From NCBI RefSeq assembly GCF_024502345.1, contig NZ_JALDNN010000001.1: DNA of 64,000 bases; one strand, written 5' to 3'. The notes under the pieces were generated by a model. That model worked only from the letters and a program-made list of their open reading frames with translations. It ran no database searches and was not told the DNA's origin. This stretch comes from Escherichia coli (GTDB lineage: Bacteria; Pseudomonadota; Gammaproteobacteria; Enterobacterales; Enterobacteriaceae). Positions 1,473 to 64,000 of the stretch are shown here, piece after piece (the first letter of the stretch is position 1; each line of letters begins with the position of its first letter). The position numbers were made by a program, and so were the translations under genes.

Positions 1473-3121
1473 TTGGGACGATACTGAATCAGCACCAGAC
1501 GCTCCTGACGATCGATGGCATCTGCGGGCGGAATGGCGAGACTGTTGATATCTTCATCGCGGTCAACCGAAAGCACGAGTGTAATAATCCCCTCCTGACG
1601 ATGTTGATTAAGCCAGTTTGCGAACTCATCATCGCTGACAAATCTCCCTTTCGCATCCGGATAATTAAGGCCGTATTTCAACTCACCTGTCTGGCGATAC
1701 ATGATGATGTCATCGCGTTGCAGGCTCCATGCCAGACCTGCGGCAACACCGACGCTATCAGTAAGAATATAGCGGCTTGGCTGAAGTGATTCTTGTGTCA
1801 TCTCGACAAAAAATTGCGGATGTTTTCCTTCCATGACTCTGTCAGGAATTGAAAATCCTACCAGCAACGCCAGCCCCAGCGGGCAAAGCGCGGCAAAAGA
1901 CCAGGTCTTTTCGACGTTTGTTAAGGTGTACCAGCCGAAAAATGCCCATAGCGAAAAAATCGACCAGGCACAAAAGACTTTATAGCTCTCGAAGGTTTGC
2001 CACACCGGCGTGTTCATTGGTCCCCAGGGGGAGACCACAAATGTGGCAATAATGCCAGTGACGCCAAAAGCGATGTTAATCCAGCCATTAATCCGCAGCG
2101 CCAGAGGATTATTTTTTGCTGCCAGCAAAGCGTAATGTGCCAACAGCATTGCCAGAGGTGCAAAGCAAGAAAGAATATAGGTGGGCAATTTGCCTTTAGC
2201 GACGGAGAAAAACAGCAGCGGCATTATCGTCCAGCTCAACAAATAGACGGTTGCGGAATGCTTGCGGTTTTTCCAGCCTGTGTACAGTGCACCGGGGAGT
2301 AATCCCAGCCACGGCAGGCTACCGGCAATGATGACCGGCACGTAGTACCAGAACGGGGCTCTGTGTTGGGCATCATCCAGTGCAAAGCGTTGAATATGCT
2401 CAACCCAGAAAAAATAGTGCCAGAAGTCAGGCTCCCGCTGCGCTATCGCCAGTCCCCAGGGGAGAACCGTCAGTACGCAACTGATAACCGCCAGCCAGCC
2501 GTAAATAAAGAGATCTTTCCAGCGTTTTTGCGTCGCTACCCATGGCAGCACGCTTAATACCGGCACGGCAAGGGCGAGAAAACCTTTGGTCATCACCCCC
2601 ATGCCGCAGGTGATTCCCAGCAGTAAAAATCCTGCGCTTTTGCCTTTCCACGTCTGTGCCTGCATTGCCAGCCAGAAGCTGCACATTCCCGCCACCAGCC
2701 AGAAGGCAATAAACGGATCGAGCACGGCATAAGTGCCGATGGCATAGACAATAAACAATGAGAGGTAAATCACTGTGGCGAGTAGAGCCAGACGTTTATC
2801 GCGCCATAAGCGCAGAGTAAACCAGGTCACCAGCGCGGCAGTTAACAGGGTCACAAAGATAACGCCTGCCCGCACACCAAAGTTATTCGCGCCAAATAGC
2901 CATTGCCCAATGCTGTTAATCCAGTATCCGGCAATGGGTTTTTCGAAATAACGTAGCCCTAACAGATGGGGCACAATCCAGTCGCCGGATGCCAGCATTT
3001 CTCGACTGATTTCCGCATAACGCGTTTCATCGGGTTGCCATAGCAGACGCGTGCTGATCGGTAACAGGTAATAGCAGGCAATAAACGCGAAGAGGCCGAT
3101 AAGGTAACGTACCGATTTCAT
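1469..3121 (-). CDS. arnT: undecaprenyl-phosphate 4-amino-4-deoxy-L-arabinose:lipid A arabinosyltransferase ArnT (550 aa)
   Basis: ORF 550 aa, polytopic membrane glycosyltransferase ([42 protein letters not shown]...); operon context. Confidence 0.95.
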
Positions 3122-4011
3122 CAGCGACTACCCGCAATTTGTTGGCAACCCAGCCAGCCTTCACGTCCGGCAATATTTCCGCGAACAACTTGTCCGAGCG
3201 GCAACGTCTCTGATAACAGTTCGCTTAAAGGGCAAAATGTCACGCCTTCCTGAGCTGCGCGTTTGAGGAGATCCACAAAATTATGCTGATAAGCGCAGCC
3301 TTCAACTTCTGCATGAATGGTATAAACCGGCGTGCCTTTATCTCGCAGGATGCGGTTGAGTAACCAACCATTAAAATCTTCTGCTTTCACATCCCGACCA
3401 ATCACTTCGTCCCAGGTGGGTAATGTCACCGGAATTTGCGCAGTGCCAGGGTTTCCTGATTCGAGCAGTGGACGGAACGGCATGGCCCCACGGCAATCGC
3501 TGTTGTAGCGCAAATGGAACGCTTCTTTTGCTTCGATCACCTGCTGGTCGGCACGCCAGCCCGCAGCGGCAGAACAGGTTACCGGTTGACCGATAATCTC
3601 TTCCAGGGTGCGAAGGCCGCGTGCAATATCGTCGATCATTGTTTGCCGATCCCAGTTACCGCTATGGGCTTGCCAGGCATGGTGATCCCAGGCGTGCAGG
3701 CCGACTTCGTGATGTTTAGCCGCTTCACGAATGATATCGGCATTGGCATGACCAATCTCTTTACCTGGCCAGGCCGTACCTGCCAGTAAAATATCCCAGC
3801 CATAAAGCGATGCCGCGTTTGAGCGCAGCATCTTCCACAAAAACTGTGGCTTCACCAGTCGCCAGAGATGGCGGCCCATATTGTCCGGGCCGACGCTGAA
3901 AAAAATGCTGGCCTGAATATTATGCTTACTCAAGATTTCCAGCAGACGCGGCACGCCTTCACGGGTGCCACGAAAGGTATCGACATCAATGCGTAAGCCT
4001 ACTTTGGTCAT
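3121..4011 (-). CDS. arnD: 4-deoxy-4-formamido-L-arabinose-phosphoundecaprenol deformylase ArnD (296 aa)
   Basis: ORF 296 aa, polysaccharide deacetylase-like sequence; start overlaps the arnA stop. Confidence 0.95.
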
Positions 4012-39293: not shown

Positions 39294-46140
<6,847 letters not shown>

Positions 46141-47794: not shown

Positions 47795-48571
47795 ATGCGA
47801 AAGATTTTTCTTCCGTTGTTACTGGTGGCGCTTTCGCCTGTCGCTCACAGTGAAGGTGTGCAGGAAGTCGAGATTGACGCACCGCTCTCAGGCTGGCATC
47901 CGGCAGAGGGCGAAGATGCCAGTTTTTCACAATCGATCAATTACCCGGCGTCGTCCGTCAATATGGCAGATGATCAAAATATCTCAGCGCAGATCCACGG
48001 CAAAATAAAGAATTATGCTGCGGCGGGTAAAGTTCAGCAGGGCCGGCTGGTGGTCAACGGTGCCAGTATGCCGCAGAGAATTGAATCCGATGGTTCATTT
48101 GCACGCCCTTATATTTTCACTGAAGGCAGCAACAGCGTGCAGGTCATCAGCCCAGATGGGCAAAGCCGACAAAAAATGCAGTTTTACTCAACGCTGGGCG
48201 CTGGAGTGATTCGCGCACGTTTACGGCTGGTTCTCTCGTGGGATACGGACAATACCGACCTCGATCTTCACGTTGTCACGCCCGATGGCGAACACGCCTG
48301 GTACGGTAACACCGTGCTGAAAAACAGTGGTGCACTGGATATGGATGTCACGACGGGGTATGGACCCGAGATTTTCGCCATGCCAGCGCCAGTTCACGGG
48401 CGCTATCAGGTGTATATCAACTACTACGGCGGGCGCAGCGAAACGGAATTAACCACCGCCCAACTGACGCTGATCACCGATGAAGGATCGGTCAATGAGA
48501 AACAGGAAACATTTATTGTACCGATGCGTAATGCTGGCGAGCTGACGCTGGTGAAAAGTTTTGACTGGTGA
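47795..48571 (+). CDS. yfaP: YfaP, DUF2135-like secreted protein (258 aa)
   Basis: ATG 47795, 4 nt after the yfaQ stop; signal peptide MRKIFLPLLLVALSPVAHSEG. Confidence 0.85.
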   Translation: MRKIFLPLLLVALSPVAHSEGVQEVEIDAPLSGWHPAEGEDASFSQSINYPASSVNMADDQNISAQIHGKIKNYAAAGKVQQGRLVVNGASMPQRIESDGSFARPYIFTEGSNSVQVISPDGQSRQKMQFYSTLGAGVIRARLRLVLSWDTDNTDLDLHVVTPDGEHAWYGNTVLKNSGALDMDVTTGYGPEIFAMPAPVHGRYQVYINYYGGRSETELTTAQLTLITDEGSVNEKQETFIVPMRNAGELTLVKSFDW

Positions 48572-48845
48572 TCCATCCCTTCACACAACCTGGCTCTTTC
48601 TTTTTTCAGATAAGACTGCTGGGCGATCTGCCGACGCCAGGATATAACCATTAACAAGCGTCGGCAGATTGGTCATTTCTTATTTTTCGTACTGAGAACT
48701 GTCCATTTACTCCGGCTTTCCTGGTTAAGGCAATGGTTTCTAAGCGATACGCATTATTGCAATGGTGACAGAACATTGCGGTAACACGCTTTTACCGCTA
48801 CCTTAACCACACTCCATCGGTCACCTGAGGCGGAGCTTCGCCCCT

Positions 48846-51695
48846 TTGAAATACCTTGCTTCTTTTCGTACAACCCTGAAAGCCTCGCGCTACATGTTCA
48901 GAGCATTGGCGTTAGTGCTCTGGCTGTTGATTGCTTTTTCATCCGTTTTTTACATCGTTAATGCGTTACATCAGCGAGAATCGGAAATTCGTCAGGAATT
49001 TAATCTGAGTTCCGATCAGGCTCAGCGCTTTATTCAACGCACCTCTGATGTGATGAAAGAGCTGAAGTACATCGCCGAAAATCGCTTATCGGCAGAAAAC
49101 GGTGTGCTTTCCCCGCGTGGACGAGAAACGCAGGCGGATGTGCCTGCGTTTGAACCGCTGTTTGCCGACTCCGATTGTTCAGCAATGAGTAACACCTGGC
49201 GAGGTTCTCTGGAGTCATTGGCGTGGTTTATGCGCTACTGGCGCGATAATTTTTCTGCGGCTTACGATCTCAATCGGGTATTTTTAATCGGCAGCGATAA
49301 CCTCTGCATGGCCAATTTCGGTCTGCGTGATATGCCAGTGGAACGCGATACCGCGTTGAAAGCGTTGCATGAACGCATCAATAAATATCGAAATGCACCA
49401 CAAGATGATAGCGGCAGTAACCTCTACTGGATCAGCGAAGGTCCGCGCCCTGGCGTCGGGTATTTTTACGCGTTGACGCCAGTTTATCTGGCGAACCGGT
49501 TGCAGGCGCTTTTGGGTGTCGAGCAGACCATCCGGATGGAGAATTTTTTCTTACCTGGTACGTTGCCGATGGGGGTTACCATTCTTGATGAAAATGGTCA
49601 TACCCTGATTTCGCTTACCGGACCAGAAAGCAAAATTAAGGGCGATCCTCGCTGGATGCAGGAACGCTCCTGGTTTGGCTATACGGAAGGGTTCCGGGAG
49701 CTGGTGCTGAAGAAAAATCTGCCACCCTCATCGCTAAGCATCGTTTATTCGGTGCCGGTTGATAAGGTGCTGGAACGCATTCGCATGTTGATCCTTAACG
49801 CAATTTTGCTGAATGTGCTTGCCGGAGCTGCATTGTTTACTCTCGCGCGGATGTACGAGCGGCGTATTTTCATTCCGGCGGAAAGCGACGCCCTGCGACT
49901 GGAAGAACATGAGCAGTTCAATCGCAAGATTGTCGCCTCCGCGCCAGTGGGTATCTGCATTTTGCGTACCGCTGATGGCGTCAATATTTTAAGTAACGAA
50001 CTGGCGCATACCTATCTCAATATGCTTACGCATGAGGACCGCCAACGACTGACGCAAATTATCTGTGGGCAGCAGGTCAATTTTGTTGATGTCCTGACCA
50101 GCAACAATACCAATCTGCAAATCAGCTTCGTCCATTCGCGCTATCGTAATGAAAACGTGGCCATTTGTGTGCTGGTGGATGTTTCTTCGCGCGTGAAGAT
50201 GGAAGAGTCGTTGCAGGAGATGGCACAAGCAGCGGAACAGGCGAGCCAGTCAAAATCGATGTTCCTTGCCACCGTCAGTCATGAGCTGCGAACGCCGCTG
50301 TATGGCATTATCGGTAACCTGGATCTGTTGCAAACCAAAGAGTTACCGAAAGGCGTCGATCGTCTGGTGACGGCAATGAACAACTCTTCCAGCCTGTTGT
50401 TGAAAATTATCAGCGATATTCTCGATTTCTCGAAGATTGAATCAGAACAGTTGAAGATCGAACCGCGTGAGTTTTCACCGCGTGAAGTGATGAACCACAT
50501 CACCGCCAACTATTTACCGCTGGTGGTACGCAAGCAGTTAGGCTTGTACTGCTTTATTGAACCGGATGTGCCAGTGGCTTTAAATGGCGACCCGATGCGT
50601 TTACAGCAGGTCATCTCCAACCTGTTGAGTAACGCCATAAAATTCACCGATACCGGCTGTATAGTTTTGCATGTTCGCGCTGATGGCGATTATCTCTCTA
50701 TCCGTGTTCGCGATACCGGCGTGGGGATACCGGCGAAAGAAGTGGTGCGCTTGTTTGATCCCTTCTTCCAGGTCGGAACGGGCGTACAGCGAAACTTCCA
50801 GGGGACCGGTCTGGGTCTGGCGATTTGTGAAAAACTGATCAGCATGATGGACGGCGACATCTCGGTAGATTCAGAACCGGGAATGGGCAGCCAGTTTACC
50901 GTGCGTATTCCGTTGTACGGCGCTCAGTACCCGCAGAAAAAAGGCGTGGAAGGGTTGAGTGGTAAACGCTGCTGGCTGGCGGTCCGCAATGCGTCGCTCT
51001 GTCAGTTCCTGGAAACCAGTTTGCAGCGCAGCGGCATCGTCGTAACAACATACGAAGGGCAGGAACCGACTCCCGAAGATGTGTTAATTACTGACGAGGT
51101 AGTGAGTAAAAAATGGCAGGGTAGAGCGGTAGTGACCTTCTGTCGTCGCCATATTGGTATTCCGCTGGAGAAAGCGCCAGGGGAGTGGGTACACAGTGTG
51201 GCTGCTCCGCATGAGCTACCGGCATTGTTGGCGCGTATTTATTTGATCGAGATGGAGAGCGACGATCCTGCTAACGCTCTGCCGTCGACGGACAAAGCGG
51301 TCAGCGATAATGACGATATGATGATTCTGGTCGTGGATGATCATCCGATTAACCGACGTCTGCTGGCAGATCAGTTGGGATCGTTGGGCTATCAATGTAA
51401 AACCGCGAATGATGGCGTCGATGCGCTTAATGTACTTAGCAAGAATCATATTGATATCGTGCTTAGCGACGTCAACATGCCAAATATGGATGGTTACCGC
51501 TTGACGCAACGCATTCGTCAGTTGGGACTGACGTTGCCGGTAATCGGAGTAACTGCTAATGCGTTGGCTGAAGAGAAGCAGCGGTGTCTGGAGTCCGGTA
51601 TGGACAGCTGCCTGTCGAAGCCGGTAACGCTGGATGTGATAAAACAGACGCTGACGGTATATGCCGAGAGGGTCAGGAAATCGCGGGAATCGTAG
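48846..51695 (+). CDS. rcsC: hybrid sensor histidine kinase RcsC (949 aa, TTG start)
   Basis: HisKA H-box SHELRTPLYGI, HATPase domain and C-terminal receiver (LVVDDHPINRRL...DVNMPNMDG). Confidence 0.96.
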   Translation: MKYLASFRTTLKASRYMFRALALVLWLLIAFSSVFYIVNALHQRESEIRQEFNLSSDQAQRFIQRTSDVMKELKYIAENRLSAENGVLSPRGRETQADVPAFEPLFADSDCSAMSNTWRGSLESLAWFMRYWRDNFSAAYDLNRVFLIGSDNLCMANFGLRDMPVERDTALKALHERINKYRNAPQDDSGSNLYWISEGPRPGVGYFYALTPVYLANRLQALLGVEQTIRMENFFLPGTLPMGVTILDENGHTLISLTGPESKIKGDPRWMQERSWFGYTEGFRELVLKKNLPPSSLSIVYSVPVDKVLERIRMLILNAILLNVLAGAALFTLARMYERRIFIPAESDALRLEEHEQFNRKIVASAPVGICILRTADGVNILSNELAHTYLNMLTHEDRQRLTQIICGQQVNFVDVLTSNNTNLQISFVHSRYRNENVAICVLVDVSSRVKMEESLQEMAQAAEQASQSKSMFLATVSHELRTPLYGIIGNLDLLQTKELPKGVDRLVTAMNNSSSLLLKIISDILDFSKIESEQLKIEPREFSPREVMNHITANYLPLVVRKQLGLYCFIEPDVPVALNGDPMRLQQVISNLLSNAIKFTDTGCIVLHVRADGDYLSIRVRDTGVGIPAKEVVRLFDPFFQVGTGVQRNFQGTGLGLAICEKLISMMDGDISVDSEPGMGSQFTVRIPLYGAQYPQKKGVEGLSGKRCWLAVRNASLCQFLETSLQRSGIVVTTYEGQEPTPEDVLITDEVVSKKWQGRAVVTFCRRHIGIPLEKAPGEWVHSVAAPHELPALLARIYLIEMESDDPANALPSTDKAVSDNDDMMILVVDDHPINRRLLADQLGSLGYQCKTANDGVDALNVLSKNHIDIVLSDVNMPNMDGYRLTQRIRQLGLTLPVIGVTANALAEEKQRCLESGMDSCLSKPVTLDVIKQTLTVYAERVRKSRES

Positions 51696-51893
51696 GACGG
51701 ATAAGGTGTTTATGCCGCATCCGGCATTCAGTGCAAATGCCAGATGCGACGCTGACGCGTCTTATCTGGCCTACTTTAATGTAATCTGTTGAAATAATGG
51801 GAATCGTAGGACGGATAAGGCGTTTACGCCGCATCCGGCAATCGGTGCAAATGCCAGATAAGACACTAACGCGTCTTATCTGGCCTACAGATG
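51685..51893. repeat. REP/BIME array between convergent rcsC and rcsB, organised as a 114-bp tandem duplication that includes the last 11 bp of rcsC
   Basis: GGGAATCGTAGGACGGATAAGG...GCCGCATCCGGCA...GCGTCTTATCTGGCCTAC occurs twice, starting at 51685 and 51799. Confidence 0.8.
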
Positions 51894-52561: not shown

Positions 52562-55234
52562 CTACAGCAAGCTCTTGACATAACTGTCAATGTCGCTGAT
52601 GTATTTTTCTATTCCTGGAACATCCTTCTCACGAATCAGATGTTCCAGCGTTTCACATAACTGCTTGCCGGGTACCAGATTTAGCATGGCAAATACGCCT
52701 TTAAGACGATGAGCCGTTTGGGCTAACGCAGCAAAGTCACTGGTTGCTGCTTCAGTATACAGCCTCTTAACATCATCCGGTACTGTGTCTACAAAGAGCG
52801 CATAATAGCCGCTGGCATGGAGTTGCGCATTTTCATCTCCGCCCAGAGGCGATTCTGTCACCTCTTCCTGCGCCAGTTGCACTTCAATTAATTGTAAGAC
52901 CGCTTCCTGCATAGCGTTGCTCATATTGAAGTTGACGCACAATTGACCAGGCCCAATTTCCCGTACGCCAGACTCATCATCGCTTAAAAGCAAGCCAGAG
53001 GCAGTAAGATTAGACGGATTATCCGTTAAAAAGATATCATAATCTTGACTAATTAATCTTTCATCGGGTGTGATACAGGTTGCACCCCAATTTTCTAACT
53101 GGCGAGTGACAATATTCCGAATTTCTGCCGAAGTAACATCCACCATTACGCAGACATCATCCAGTAAACGCTCTTCTTCCTCTTCAACTTCCGGGTCAGC
53201 TGCGAGCATTTTGATATGCACAGAGTAGCGTGTACCAAGCCCATCCCGCGTTTTGATGTTTAAATGACCGCCCAGTTTACGTGCCAGTTGATCGCTCAGC
53301 CAGAATGCCAGCGGGTCCGCCTTGCCATAGCGATCGTTTTGGGTCTGGTTGATAAACGGGAAGTGCAAATTATCCATTTCATGAATGCTTACGCCTTCTC
53401 CGGTGTCCAGAATGCGGAACGTCAGGCGGTCTTCGGAGGACTCATCCTGATCAACCTCAAGGGTGATTTTTCCCAATTGCGTTGAGGTCACGGCATATTG
53501 CATCAGTAGCAGCAAAATACGTCGTAAGGCATCGCGATCGCCACGGCGCATATCGTGTGCTTTCAGATGATTGTTAATCAGCAGTTGCAGACCTTTACGC
53601 TTGATGGCAGGCAACACTGAAGGCACAACTTCATCAATTAAATCCTGCACGGAGAACAGCACCGTCTCACTTTTCCAGCTATCGTCCGCAAGCATGTTCG
53701 CTAACTGTATTTCATCGACCAGCCGCACCAGCACATCTGCCTGATTCGCCAGTTGTTTGCTTTCCGGGGCGTTGAGTTTAGCCGCGCTCTCCGCCAGGGA
53801 CTGTGCAGGTTCTTTCAGCGCATCGCCAATGTTTTTCATAAAGGTCATCCGCCCCTGCTGGTTTTTCTCATACAGACGCTGCGCCTGCTTGAGTTTCTTG
53901 TTTACCAGCACTTCGCGATCCTGATCGCGAATAATGAAAATTTGTGTGCGCGGCGCGACCTGGCTGCGGAACATGCGGATCTCATACAGCTCGTTATTGA
54001 TCGTCGCCTGAATAATCCCCTGATGCTGTTCCGCCATGGTGGTGATGTTTTGCAGATTCAAATGCGGCAGCAAATGATCGGCAATTTTGTTACTTATGAC
54101 AGTGCGGTTCGATTCCTGATCGTGAACCAGCAGGCCGAGCGGCAGCAGTGAGACTATCTCTTCATTGATTGCCCGTAAAATGCGCAATTCGTTATTGACC
54201 GCCGTGTTGGGTAGACTTTCTGTACTGCGACTGGAGAAATGGCGGAATGTGGTATAGCCAAATAACGCCAGCGCCAGCAAACCGATGTTCAGCAGCAGTG
54301 GCAGCAGAATGTTTTGCAACGTATCCAGCAATAAGGTGCCATAAGGAACCTGCCAGACCAGTCGCATATCGGTAGAGTTGAGTGCCGAGGAGATTTCAAT
54401 CTTCGTACTGTTAAAGTGGATACTGACGCTATCCGTCCCTTCTTTCTCATTATCATTGTCTCCCGTTGCCGTCGCGTCTGGCTCAAGGCGGAAACTGTCC
54501 AGCGGCATACCCGGTGGGATCAAATCATTAATCGGCAGATCAAAAGCCACGACCGTTGCCAGATGTCCCGGCTGGTTGAACGTGGTACGTAAGGTAAAGT
54601 AATGACCGTTCTGCCAGGCCAGGCGGCGCATGTTAGAAAAACTTTCGCGTTCATCGAGGGCGTTGGCCTGTTGCAACATCTCTGCACGACGTGAATCAAC
54701 AATGTCACTGACGGTCGATTCTTTAAATCCGGAGGTGAGATCTTTGAGGGGCAGGGTTGAGATCAGTACCAGACTGTTATCCTGACCATTCAGGTAATAC
54801 ATTGACCACGGTACATTTTCTGCGCCCCACAATGTGTCCAGATAGGTGGACATCCGTTGAGTCATCTCAAGCGTTGAGTTGTCGTGAGAGCCAAAGATTA
54901 ACGCTTCCGTTTTGCGGCGCGGTTTTTCCAGATAGTAGACATCCTGTTTCAGGCGCGTCTCTTGTAAACCTTCGCCGGAGGAGGGGGAGGTCGTCGCGGC
55001 AATGTTGTCGTAGATCTGCCAGGTCACGTAACGCCAGTTATCGACGCGCTTTTGGATAGCATGGGTAATGTCGACAATCTGGTAACTTTTATCTTTCAGC
55101 CAGGCGTTAACGGCGCTTTGTACCATTACACCCATCGTCACCAGTAACACAATGATCAACAGTAAAAAGAAGCGGGTAATGCTCCCCGGTAGGAGTGAAA
55201 AGCGGGTCGTGGCCGTTGTCTCTTTCTGACGCAT
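52562..55234 (-). CDS. rcsD: phosphotransfer (HPt) protein RcsD (890 aa)
   Basis: ORF 890 aa with N-terminal TM/periplasmic domain, degenerate kinase-like core and C-terminal HPt domain; immediately upstream of rcsB. Confidence 0.95.
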   Translation of the reverse strand: MRQKETTATTRFSLLPGSITRFFLLLIIVLLVTMGVMVQSAVNAWLKDKSYQIVDITHAIQKRVDNWRYVTWQIYDNIAATTSPSSGEGLQETRLKQDVYYLEKPRRKTEALIFGSHDNSTLEMTQRMSTYLDTLWGAENVPWSMYYLNGQDNSLVLISTLPLKDLTSGFKESTVSDIVDSRRAEMLQQANALDERESFSNMRRLAWQNGHYFTLRTTFNQPGHLATVVAFDLPINDLIPPGMPLDSFRLEPDATATGDNDNEKEGTDSVSIHFNSTKIEISSALNSTDMRLVWQVPYGTLLLDTLQNILLPLLLNIGLLALALFGYTTFRHFSSRSTESLPNTAVNNELRILRAINEEIVSLLPLGLLVHDQESNRTVISNKIADHLLPHLNLQNITTMAEQHQGIIQATINNELYEIRMFRSQVAPRTQIFIIRDQDREVLVNKKLKQAQRLYEKNQQGRMTFMKNIGDALKEPAQSLAESAAKLNAPESKQLANQADVLVRLVDEIQLANMLADDSWKSETVLFSVQDLIDEVVPSVLPAIKRKGLQLLINNHLKAHDMRRGDRDALRRILLLLMQYAVTSTQLGKITLEVDQDESSEDRLTFRILDTGEGVSIHEMDNLHFPFINQTQNDRYGKADPLAFWLSDQLARKLGGHLNIKTRDGLGTRYSVHIKMLAADPEVEEEEERLLDDVCVMVDVTSAEIRNIVTRQLENWGATCITPDERLISQDYDIFLTDNPSNLTASGLLLSDDESGVREIGPGQLCVNFNMSNAMQEAVLQLIEVQLAQEEVTESPLGGDENAQLHASGYYALFVDTVPDDVKRLYTEAATSDFAALAQTAHRLKGVFAMLNLVPGKQLCETLEHLIREKDVPGIEKYISDIDSYVKSLL

Positions 55235-55545
55235 TCGTGTTTATGACCTGTTAAAACTTCGCGAAGTGATAGGGCAGTATAAAGGGTACAGTGTGAAATT
55301 CCAGACTCTTACCTGATTGATGATTCTCTATTCTCCCGTGATATTTATCATCCTGCATTGGGGGAAATAGATGTACAAGCGCCATTTTGCTGTACAAATA
55401 ACCTACGAAAAGCCCAACGAAATTAATTGCAAATAAACGAAGATTGCTGGAAATTATGCTGATGTTAATTATTTGTGAAATAGTTAACAAGCGTTATAGT
55501 TTTTCTGTGGTAGCACAGAATAATGAAAAGTGTGTAAAGAAGGGT

Positions 55546-55638
55546 AAAAAAAACCGGATGCGAGGCATCCGGTTGAAATAGGGGTAAACAGACATTCAGA
55601 AATGAATGACGGTAATAAATAAAGTTAATGATGATAGC
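55546..55638 (-). ncRNA. micF: MicF small regulatory RNA (antisense regulator of ompF mRNA), including its intrinsic terminator
   Basis: Minus-strand sequence GCTATCATCATTAACTTTATTTATTACCGTCATTCATTTCTGAATGTCTGTTTACCCCTATTTCAACCGGATGCCTCGCATCCGGTTTTTTTT matches MicF as I recall it; divergent from ompC. Confidence 0.9.
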
Positions 55639-55793
55639 GGGAGATATTCTAGTTGCGAGTGAAGGTTTTGTTTTGACATTCAGTGCTGTCAAATACTTAA
55701 GAATAAGTTATTGATTTTAACCTTGAATTATTATTGCTTGATGTTAGGTGCTTATTTCGCCATTCCGTAATAATCTTAAAAAGTTCCCTTGCA

Positions 55794-55855
55794 TTTACAT
55801 TTTGAAACATCTATAGCGATAAATGAAACATCTTAAAAGTTTTAGTATCATATTC
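55794..55855 (+). promoter_or_regulatory. OmpR-binding sites C1-C3 of the ompC promoter (TTTACATTTTGAAACATCTA / TAGCGATAAATGAAACATCT / TAAAAGTTTTAGTATCATAT)
   Basis: Three tandem 20-bp OmpR-box-like elements about 120-180 bp upstream of the ompC ATG. Confidence 0.75.
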
Positions 55856-55972
55856 GTGTTGGATTATTCTGCATTTTTGGGGAGAATGGACCTGCCGACT
55901 GATTAATGAGGGTTAATCAGTATGCAGTGGCATAAAAAAGCAAATAAAGGCATATAACAGAGGGTTAATAAC

Positions 55973-57085
55973 ATGAAAGTTAAAGTACTGTCCCTCCTGG
56001 TCCCAGCTCTGCTGGTAGCAGGCGCAGCAAATGCTGCTGAAGTTTACAACAAAGACGGCAACAAATTAGATCTGTACGGTAAAGTAGACGGCCTGCACTA
56101 TTTCTCCGACAACGATAAGGTTGATGGCGACAAGACCTACATGCGTCTTGGCTTCAAAGGTGAAACTCAGGTTACTGACCAGCTGACCGGTTACGGCCAG
56201 TGGGAATATCAGATCCAGGGTAACGCTCCGGAAAGCGAAAACAACTCCTGGACCCGTGTGGCATTTGCTGGTCTGAAATTCCAGGACGTTGGTTCTTTCG
56301 ACTACGGTCGTAACTACGGCGTTGTTTACGACGTAACCTCCTGGACCGACGTGCTGCCAGAATTCGGTGGCGACACCTACGGTTCTGACAACTTCATGCA
56401 GCAGCGTGGTAACGGCTTCGCGACCTACCGTAACACCGACTTCTTCGGTCTGGTTGACGGCCTGAACTTTGCTGTTCAGTATCAGGGCAAAAACGGTAGC
56501 GTAAGCGGCGAAGGCATGACCAACAACGGTCGTGATGCTCTTGAGCAGAACGGTGACGGTGTTGGTGGTTCTATCACTTATGACATCGGTGAAGGCTTCA
56601 GCTTCGGTGGTGCGATCTCCAGCTCCAAACGCACCGCAGAGCAGAACAACAGTGCTCGTTTCATCGGTAATGGTGATCGTGCAGAAACCTACACTGGTGG
56701 TCTGAAATACGACGCTAACAACATCTACCTGGCTGCTCAGTACACCCAGACTTATAACGCAACTCTGGCTGGTGATTTAGGCTGGGCGAACAAAGCCCAG
56801 AACTTTGAAGTGGTTGCCCAGTATCAGTTCGACTTCGGTCTGCGTCCTTCTGTTGCTTACCTGCAGTCCAAAGGTAAAAATCTGAATGCCAACATCGCTG
56901 GTCGTACTTACGACGACGAAGATCTGGTGAAATATGTTGATGTTGGTGCTACCTACTACTTCAACAAAAACATGTCCACCTATGTTGATTACAAAATCAA
57001 CCTGCTGGACGACAATAACTTCACCCGCGCTGCTGGCATCAACACTGATGACATCGTAGCTCTGGGTCTGGTTTACCAGTTCTAA
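55973..57085 (+). CDS. ompC: outer membrane porin OmpC (370 aa)
   Basis: Signal peptide [21 protein letters not shown], porin beta-barrel sequence ending ...GLVYQF. Confidence 0.97.
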
Positions 57086-60115: not shown

Positions 60116-61759
60116 ATGGAACTTCTTGTACTTGTCTGGCGGCAGTATCGCTGGCCATTTATCAGTGTGATGGCGCTAAGCCTCGCCAGTGCGGCATTAG
60201 GCATTGGCTTAATTGCTTTTATCAATCAGCGCCTTATCGAAACGGCGGATACCAGTCTGCTGGTATTGCCGGAGTTTCTGGGATTATTGCTGCTGTTGAT
60301 GGCAGTCACTCTCGGATCGCAACTGGCGCTCACCACTTTGGGGCATCACTTCGTTTACCGACTGCGTAGTGAATTTTTCAAGCGGATTCTGGATACCAAC
60401 GTCGAGCGCATTGAACAACTCGGTAGCGCCTCGTTGCTGGCGGGATTAACCAGCGATGTGCGCAATATCACCATTGCTTTTGTGCGTCTGCCGGAACTGG
60501 TGCAGGGGATCATTCTCACTATCGGTTCAGCGGCGTATCTGTGGATGCTGTCGGGCAAAATGTTGCTGGTAACGGCTATCTGGATGGCGATCACCATCTG
60601 GGGTGGTTTTGTACTGGTGGCGCGGGTGTACAAACATATGGCGACCCTGCGTGAAACCGAAGACAAGCTGTACACGGATTTTCAAACCGTACTCGAAGGG
60701 CGCAAAGAGCTGACTCTGAATCGGGAACGCGCCGAGTATGTGTTTAACAACCTCTACATTCCTGATGCGCAAGAGTATCGCCATCATATTATCCGCGCAG
60801 ACACCTTCCATCTTAGTGCCGTGAACTGGTCAAACATCATGATGCTGGGCGCTATCGGCCTGGTGTTCTGGATGGCGAACAGTCTCGGTTGGGCTGATAC
60901 CAACGTTGCTGCGACCTATTCGTTGACACTGTTATTCCTGCGTACGCCGCTGCTTTCGGCGGTTGGCGCATTGCCGACGCTGCTGACGGCGCAGGTGGCG
61001 TTTAACAAGCTGAACAAATTCGCACTCGCGCCTTTCAAAGCAGAGTTTCCGCGCCCGCAGGCGTTTCCCAACTGGCAAACGCTGGAGCTGCGTAACGTGA
61101 CGTTTGCTTATCAGGATAACGCGTTTTCCGTTGGTCCGATTAACCTCACCATCAAACGTGGTGAACTGCTGTTTCTGATTGGCGGCAACGGTAGCGGAAA
61201 ATCGACGCTGGCGATGTTGCTGACGGGCTTGTATCAGCCACAAAGCGGCGAAATCTTGCTGGATGGCAAACCTGTCAGCGGCGAACAACCGGAAGATTAT
61301 CGCAAACTGTTTTCGGCAGTGTTTACCGATGTCTGGCTGTTTGATCAACTGCTGGGGCCGGAGGGTAAACCCGCTAACCCGCAACTGGTTGAGAAGTGGC
61401 TGGCGCAGCTGAAAATGGCTCATAAGCTTGAGTTAAGCAACGGGCGTATTGTTAACCTGAAGTTATCAAAAGGGCAGAAAAAACGCGTGGCGCTGTTGCT
61501 GGCGCTGGCAGAAGAACGCGATATTATCCTGCTGGATGAATGGGCGGCGGATCAGGATCCACACTTCCGTCGTGAGTTTTATCAGGTGTTGCTGCCGCTG
61601 ATGCAGGAGATGGGTAAAACTATTTTCGCTATCAGTCATGATGATCATTACTTTATCCACGCCGACCGCCTGCTGGAAATGCGCAATGGGCAACTTAGCG
61701 AGCTGACGGGCGAAGAGCGCGATGCCGCTTCGCGTGATGCCGTTGCCCGGACGGCATAA
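60116..61759 (+). CDS. yojI: ABC transporter permease/ATPase YojI, microcin J25 efflux (547 aa)
   Basis: N-terminal TM domain plus C-terminal ABC ATPase with Walker [10 protein letters not shown], signature LSKGQKKR and Walker B ILLDE. Confidence 0.94.
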
Positions 61760-63660: not shown

Positions 63661-63665
63661 GTATG

Positions 63666-64000
63666 CTGATAAGACGCGCCAGCGTCGCATCAGGCAACCG
63701 GCTCGGGCGTTAGATGTCGGATGCGGCGTGACCGCCTTATCCGACCTACGGGGTGGAGCACTTCACAGCGGTGTAGGCCTGATAAGACGCGTCAGCGTCG
63801 CATCAGGCAACCGGCTCGGACGTTGGATGTCGGATGCGGCGTAACCGCCTTATCCGACCTACGGGGTGGAGCACTTCACAGCGGTGTAGGCCTGATAAGA
63901 CGCGTCAGCGTCGCATCAGGCAACCGGCTCGGACGTTGGATGTCGGATGCGGCGTAACCGACTTATTCGACCTACGGGGTGGAGCACTTCACAGCGGCGT
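63666..64000. repeat. BIME-type REP array: at least three tandem copies of a 113-bp unit, continuing beyond the window end
   Basis: Unit starts at 63666, 63779 and 63892; each contains REP palindromes (CTGATAAGACGCG(C/T)CAGCGTCGCATCAGGC, GGATGCGGCGT(A/G)ACCGCCTTATCCGACCTAC); explains the duplicated small ORFs in the six-frame track. Confidence 0.85.

Follow-up and report, generated by a model that had tools for sequence, protein, structure and literature searches.

The DNA between rcsD and ompC in this Escherichia coli genome holds, with a probability that we put at about 0.97, an intact and canonical divergent E. coli micF-ompC locus. The locus is already known and brings no new biology, and no feature of the sequence speaks against this reading. 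The stretch analysed (hereafter the window) is 64 kb long, and a scan of its whole length against Rfam returned the MicF family (RF00033) at 55546-55639 on the minus strand with 116.8 bits (E 9.5e-18), the gathering score of the model being 79. The covariance-model search that the first-pass annotation had proposed for MicF thus ends 38 bits above threshold, and its claim of a complete MicF sRNA on the minus strand is borne out by a match that spans model positions 1-94 of 94 and is full length rather than truncated. A permissive scan of 55200-56100 gave no second Rfam match at E<=1 besides MicF. In the curated record of K-12 MG1655, micF is annotated as a 93-nt ncRNA whose equivalent in the window runs from 55638 down to 55546; the RF00033 model has one extra 5' base relative to this 93-nt K-12 gene, which is why the match reaches 55639. 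The gene is accordingly placed as follows:

55546-55638, minus strand: micF, the 93-nt MicF sRNA (RF00033, 116.8 bits), with its 5' end at 55638 and its 3' end at 55546.

The RNA is identical to that of K-12 at 92 of its 93 positions, the sole substitution lying at 55557. Two helices, an internal stem-loop and a Rho-independent terminator, are found both in the Rfam alignment and in the minimum free energy (MFE) fold of MicF, which leaves the first 25 nt unpaired and is far more stable than those of 200 dinucleotide shuffles (z = -5.4). Two parts of the molecule follow from these data:

55546-55574, minus strand: MicF intrinsic terminator, a 10-pair stem-loop (55552-55574) followed by a U tract (55546-55551), supported by a terminator scan, the Rfam consensus structure and the fold.
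55606-55638, minus strand: MicF nt 1-33, the 5' region for target pairing, single-stranded, free of pairs through nt 25 of the MFE fold and invariant in six E. coli strains.

With the substitution at 55557 (G in the window, A in K-12), the terminator stem of the RNA has a G-C pair where K-12 has G·U, and the RF00033 consensus carries the base of the window at this position. A 75-codon ORF with a TTG start does exist at 55465-55692 on the minus strand, overlapping micF, and would allow the region to be read as encoding a small protein. We give this reading almost no credence, given that the ORF is purely mechanical (a TTG start in AT-rich DNA of 33% GC) and crosses both the promoter and the terminator of micF, that the match of the stretch to an RNA covariance model is full-length and has conserved helices, and that K-12 annotates an ncRNA and no CDS at micF.

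The 5' region of MicF is complementary to ompF. Since ompF lies outside the window, the K-12 gene was taken as the pairing partner, and MicF nt 1-33 forms 25 pairs with positions -17 to +11 of K-12 ompF at -27.1 kcal/mol, in a duplex spanning the Shine-Dalgarno sequence and the AUG. An equally good duplex was found in only one of 18,250 background 50-nt windows taken from both strands of the 64 kb. This calculation, which sets MicF nt 1-33 against a 50-nt window of ompF and a genomic background, replaced an unrestricted RNAduplex run that paired the whole of MicF with 180 nt of ompF and whose over-extended duplex with large loops (z = -1.3) was no better than those of shuffled sequences and was discarded. 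The one background window in question, which gives the best background duplex (-29 kcal/mol; minus strand, 61627-61671), has an internal loop of 10 nt and is antisense to a 547-aa coding ORF (60116-61759), and was therefore judged to be a chance match.

Upstream of micF, two control elements were located on the same strand:

55646-55651, minus strand: micF -10 hexamer TAGAAT, at -13 to -8, read from the sequence.
55670-55689, minus strand: putative Mar/Sox/Rob box (marbox) ACAGCACTGAATGTCAAAAC, at -51 to -32 of micF in class II position, with one mismatch to AYNGCACNNWNNRYYAAAYN.

The hexamer at the -35 position of micF (55669-55674, minus strand) reads AAAACA, a poor match, and the -35 region is overlapped by the marbox, which is invariant in the six strains. 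The box has a CACT-7N-AAA layout with its centre near -41; the same layout and centre occur in the class II micF promoter of Klebsiella, the subject of a cryo-EM study of RamA (PMC8811837). The marbox pattern was found three times in the 64 kb for 1.43 occurrences expected, a count that does not by itself rise above chance, and it is because of its position at micF, not because of the pattern count, that we regard the candidate as meaningful. A scan with the sigma-70 consensus picked up neither the micF nor the ompC promoter, as expected of activator-dependent promoters, and we therefore placed the promoter hexamers of both genes from their position and their identity with K-12. The two matches that the scan did return in the region (55473-55500 and 55823-55851) were set aside as being at chance level, with 2 found for 2.3 expected.

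On the opposite strand, the features of ompC are these:

55859-55887, plus strand: ompC core promoter, with -35 TTGGAT (55859-55864), a 17-bp spacer and -10 GAGAAT (55882-55887), read from the sequence and identical to K-12.
55892-55972, plus strand: 5' leader of ompC, about 79-81 nt long; a hairpin occupies 55892-55927 (inverted repeat and fold), and the Shine-Dalgarno sequence GAGGG is at 55960-55964.
55973-57085, plus strand: ompC coding sequence of 370 aa, an ORF matching NCBIfam NF007841 ('porin OmpC') with 755 bits.

The core promoter agrees with the consensus at 8 of 12 positions, under the scan threshold of 9, and the transcription start of ompC, which we infer from the position of the -10 element, is a prediction. 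The 755 bits of OmpC on NF007841 compare with a cut-off of 484, and the protein falls below the cut-offs of the other porin models, scoring 473 on that for OmpF (<583) and 461 on that for PhoE (<599). It is 89% identical to the OmpC of K-12 (370 versus 367 aa), from which this allele differs by indels at three sites and by clustered substitutions, while about 99% of the regulatory region upstream agrees with K-12. We also note two copies of the 10-mer GAGGGTTAAT in the leader of ompC, 52 nt apart, the first copy (55908-55917) in and beside the loop of the 5' hairpin and the second (55960-55969) forming the Shine-Dalgarno region. The spacing of 335 bp between micF and ompC given in the first-pass annotation was recovered exactly (55973 - 55638 = 335, or 334 intervening bases); it runs from the 5' end of micF to the ATG of ompC at 55973, not to the ompC promoter, and is also 335 in K-12 (2313084 - 2312749).

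Between the two promoters lie the putative binding sites of OmpR. A C1 duplex used in dimerisation experiments with OmpR, TCCCTTGCATTTACATTTTGAAACATCTATAGCGAT (PMC2586830), has an exact 36-bp match at 55785-55820, for which 0 are expected by chance. An OmpR consensus-like 20-mer listed for the ompF upstream region of Yersinia pestis (PMC3050692) has its sole match in the 64 kb at 55794-55813, with 3 mismatches (17/20) and 0.01 expected. The half-site TGAAACATCT occurs at 55803 and again 21 bp further on, at 55824. In the published architecture, ompC has three contiguous 20-bp OmpR sites, each composed of two 10-bp half-sites (PMC3050692), and this arrangement gives the following boxes here:

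55794-55813, plus strand: OmpR box C1, TTTACATTTTGAAACATCTA, inside the match to the published C1 duplex at 55785-55820.
55814-55833, plus strand: OmpR box C2, TAGCGATAAATGAAACATCT, which repeats the C1 half-site TGAAACATCT and is identical to K-12; border from the 3 x 20 bp architecture.
55834-55853, plus strand: OmpR box C3, TAAAAGTTTTAGTATCATAT, identical to K-12; border from the 3 x 20 bp architecture.

Over 55794-55853 all 60 bp agree with K-12, and C3, which ends at 55853, sits 6 bp before the -35 hexamer of ompC. The borders given for C2 and C3 are those predicted from the published 3 x 20 bp architecture; a full-text literature search with the C2 and C3 sequences returned no OmpR paper. 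Three tandem OmpR boxes had been proposed at 55794-55855, and while the boxes and their start stand, the end lies at 55853, making the span first given 2 bp too long.

What the analysis itself shows is the set of sequence elements, with their positions and their identity to K-12, and the complementarity between MicF and ompF. Protein binding, expression and regulation at this locus we infer from the literature, and the following scheme is to be read in that light. MicF, a class 1 Hfq-binding sRNA (PMC9988348), would act in trans as a 93-nt RNA working with the chaperone Hfq; transcription of its gene would run leftward, starting at a weak sigma-70 promoter and stopping at an intrinsic terminator of its own, and its pairing with ompF would block translation and lower the amount of OmpF porin. 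For K-12, the expression of MicF, its binding of Hfq and its repression of OmpF in vivo are established (PMC5745476; PMC9988348). Transcribed rightward, ompC would depend on a weak promoter in need of OmpR-P on C1 to C3 upstream of its -35 element. At low osmolarity OmpR-P is described as occupying C1 only, which is insufficient for the activation of ompC, and at high osmolarity as filling C2-C3, which turns ompC on (PMC3050692), so that OmpC would likewise be expected to rise here once both boxes are filled. The co-induction of micF by OmpR described at high osmolarity (PMC5745476; PMC3617542) would reinforce the fall in OmpF. The marbox over the -35 region of micF would link MicF to antibiotic and oxidative stress, under which the gene is induced by SoxS, MarA and Rob (PMC5745476; PMC3617542). 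The micF-ompC intergenic region is also bound by H-NS (PMC5745476).

The only other reading of any weight is that C1-C3 serve ompC alone, micF responding to osmolarity through other sites or indirectly, so that the two genes would be neighbours rather than a co-regulated unit. Further experiments are needed, according to one study, to establish direct activation of micF by OmpR (PMC5175337). The geometry of the region lends this reading some plausibility, in that the start of C1 is 156 bp upstream of that of micF, a long way for a direct activator, and in that micF has a proximal activator site of its own, the marbox. Counting against it, Takayanagi et al., as cited in PMC5175337, are said to have reported a positive cis element for micF in 1991. 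Reviews moreover have OmpR activating micF at high osmolarity, with ompC and micF co-induced (PMC5745476; PMC3617542), and binding of OmpR at micF is detected by ChIP (PMC3945435). On balance we consider it unlikely that the boxes act on ompC only. The co-regulated divergent unit remains the preferred reading; what the first-pass annotation had observed in the micF-ompC region is confirmed, and its interpretation is supported.

The closest characterized system is the locus of K-12 MG1655 itself (micF, b4439; ompC, b2215; NC_000913.3, 2312749-2313176), which has the same genes in the same orientation with the same 335-bp spacing. The two regions align without gaps, and 4 substitutions separate them over the 427 bp; no difference between the window and K-12 is seen in the C1-C3 span, in the marbox or in either core promoter. 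The differences (window/K-12) are G/A at 55557 in the terminator stem, A/T at 55644 (position -6 of micF), T/C at 55768, where no element was assigned, and C/T at 55892, at about +1 of ompC and at the base of its leader hairpin, where the change is from U·G to C-G if the base is transcribed. We note that both differences falling in predicted RNA stems (55557 and 55892) change a G·U pair to G-C. Six E. coli strains aligned over these 427 bp show no variation in the MicF seed, the marbox, C2, C3 or the core promoter of ompC; variation in MicF is confined to the terminator position, and in C1 one strain has a one-base insertion in a T-run and a second strain a single substitution.

Since both 55644, at -6 of the promoter, and 55557, in the terminator stem, differ from K-12, the micF of the window might be a functionally altered allele in which the level or the stability of MicF is changed. 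We hold this to be very improbable: the variants are shared with other lineages (G at 55557 in 4 of the 6 strains, A at 55644 in 3 of the 6), the substitutions leave the -10 hexamer of micF, the marbox and the seed untouched, and the change at 55557 strengthens a terminator pair that already existed and brings in the base of the Rfam consensus. Only slightly less improbable is the broader proposition that the substitutions together (T to A at -6 of micF, G·U to G-C in the terminator and U·G to C-G in the ompC hairpin) may measurably shift the balance between OmpF and OmpC in this lineage away from that of K-12. The three regulatory-region variants concerned (55644, 55557 and 55892) are common among E. 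coli lineages, and the difference at 55768 is likewise shared with other lineages.

The best database match to the region is E. coli O125ac:K+:H10 strain C 236-04A (NZ_CP109924.1), with 99.9% identity over 701 bp. The length of ompC and the flanking genes are as in the window, and micF is unannotated; a G at the equivalent of 55651 makes its micF -10 hexamer CAGAAT, as against TAGAAT in the window. A like layout is found in E. coli at micC-ompN, where a porin-repressing sRNA is divergent from another porin gene (PMC5745476). That system differs in its RNA family, in its target, which is ompC, and in its locus, and the whole-window Rfam scan gave no match to MicC.

The surroundings of the locus agree with its identification. 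The gene order rcsB(-) rcsD(-) micF(-) ompC(+) apbE(+) ada(+) alkB(+) reproduces the K-12 order as read on the opposite strand, and micF is divergent from ompC and adjoins rcsD, whose product is encoded by an 890-aa ORF at 52562-55234 on the minus strand (1569 bits). The intergenic region has 33% G+C, compared with 51% for the window. Further along the window, several observations concern other genes. The ato locus (atoS, atoC and atoDAEB), which in K-12 separates rcsC from yfaP by some 7.3 kb, is missing at 47795-48845, and a YfaP homologue 98% identical to that of K-12 ends at 48571, 274 bp before the start of rcsC at 48846. An unbroken ORF of 1539 codons (41521-46140) stands at the position of yfaS, a pseudogene in K-12; identified by position and length alone, yfaS appears to be intact in this strain. 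Five matches to the REP-like Rfam family naRNA4 (RF02564) lie just above its gathering score: a tandem pair on the plus strand at 51695-51885, between the convergent genes rcsC and rcsB, and a tandem group of three on the minus strand at 63664-63972, close to the right end of the window.

Across the species, of 5,426 complete E. coli genomes, 5,374 carry a single copy of the 427-bp region at an identity of at least 98%, with 98.4 to 99.8% identity among the full-length matches listed. The window is accordingly part of an E. coli chromosome. No match to the region was found in 52 of the 5,426, and 28 genomes cover less than 80% of it. A separate observation concerns NZ_CP038295.1 (O55:H7 TB182A; 2501-3184), where a deletion that extends into ompC from a point shortly upstream of the micF start has removed the entire control region between the genes, together with the 5' part of ompC, a gene annotated there as partial.

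MicF, which affects the permeability of the outer membrane, including the entry of antibiotics, is the founding example among trans-acting antisense regulatory RNAs. The expectation that an ORF-only annotation would miss its gene was correct, in that no micF feature is present in the PGAP records inspected: the PGAP annotation of the closest strain leaves the stretch from rcsD to ompC empty, and in 13 more RefSeq records no feature lies over the micF match. Among the records inspected, micF is annotated only in the curated record of K-12. The interest of this locus is thus one of annotation only: a gene list drawn from ORFs or from the PGAP records inspected would omit micF.
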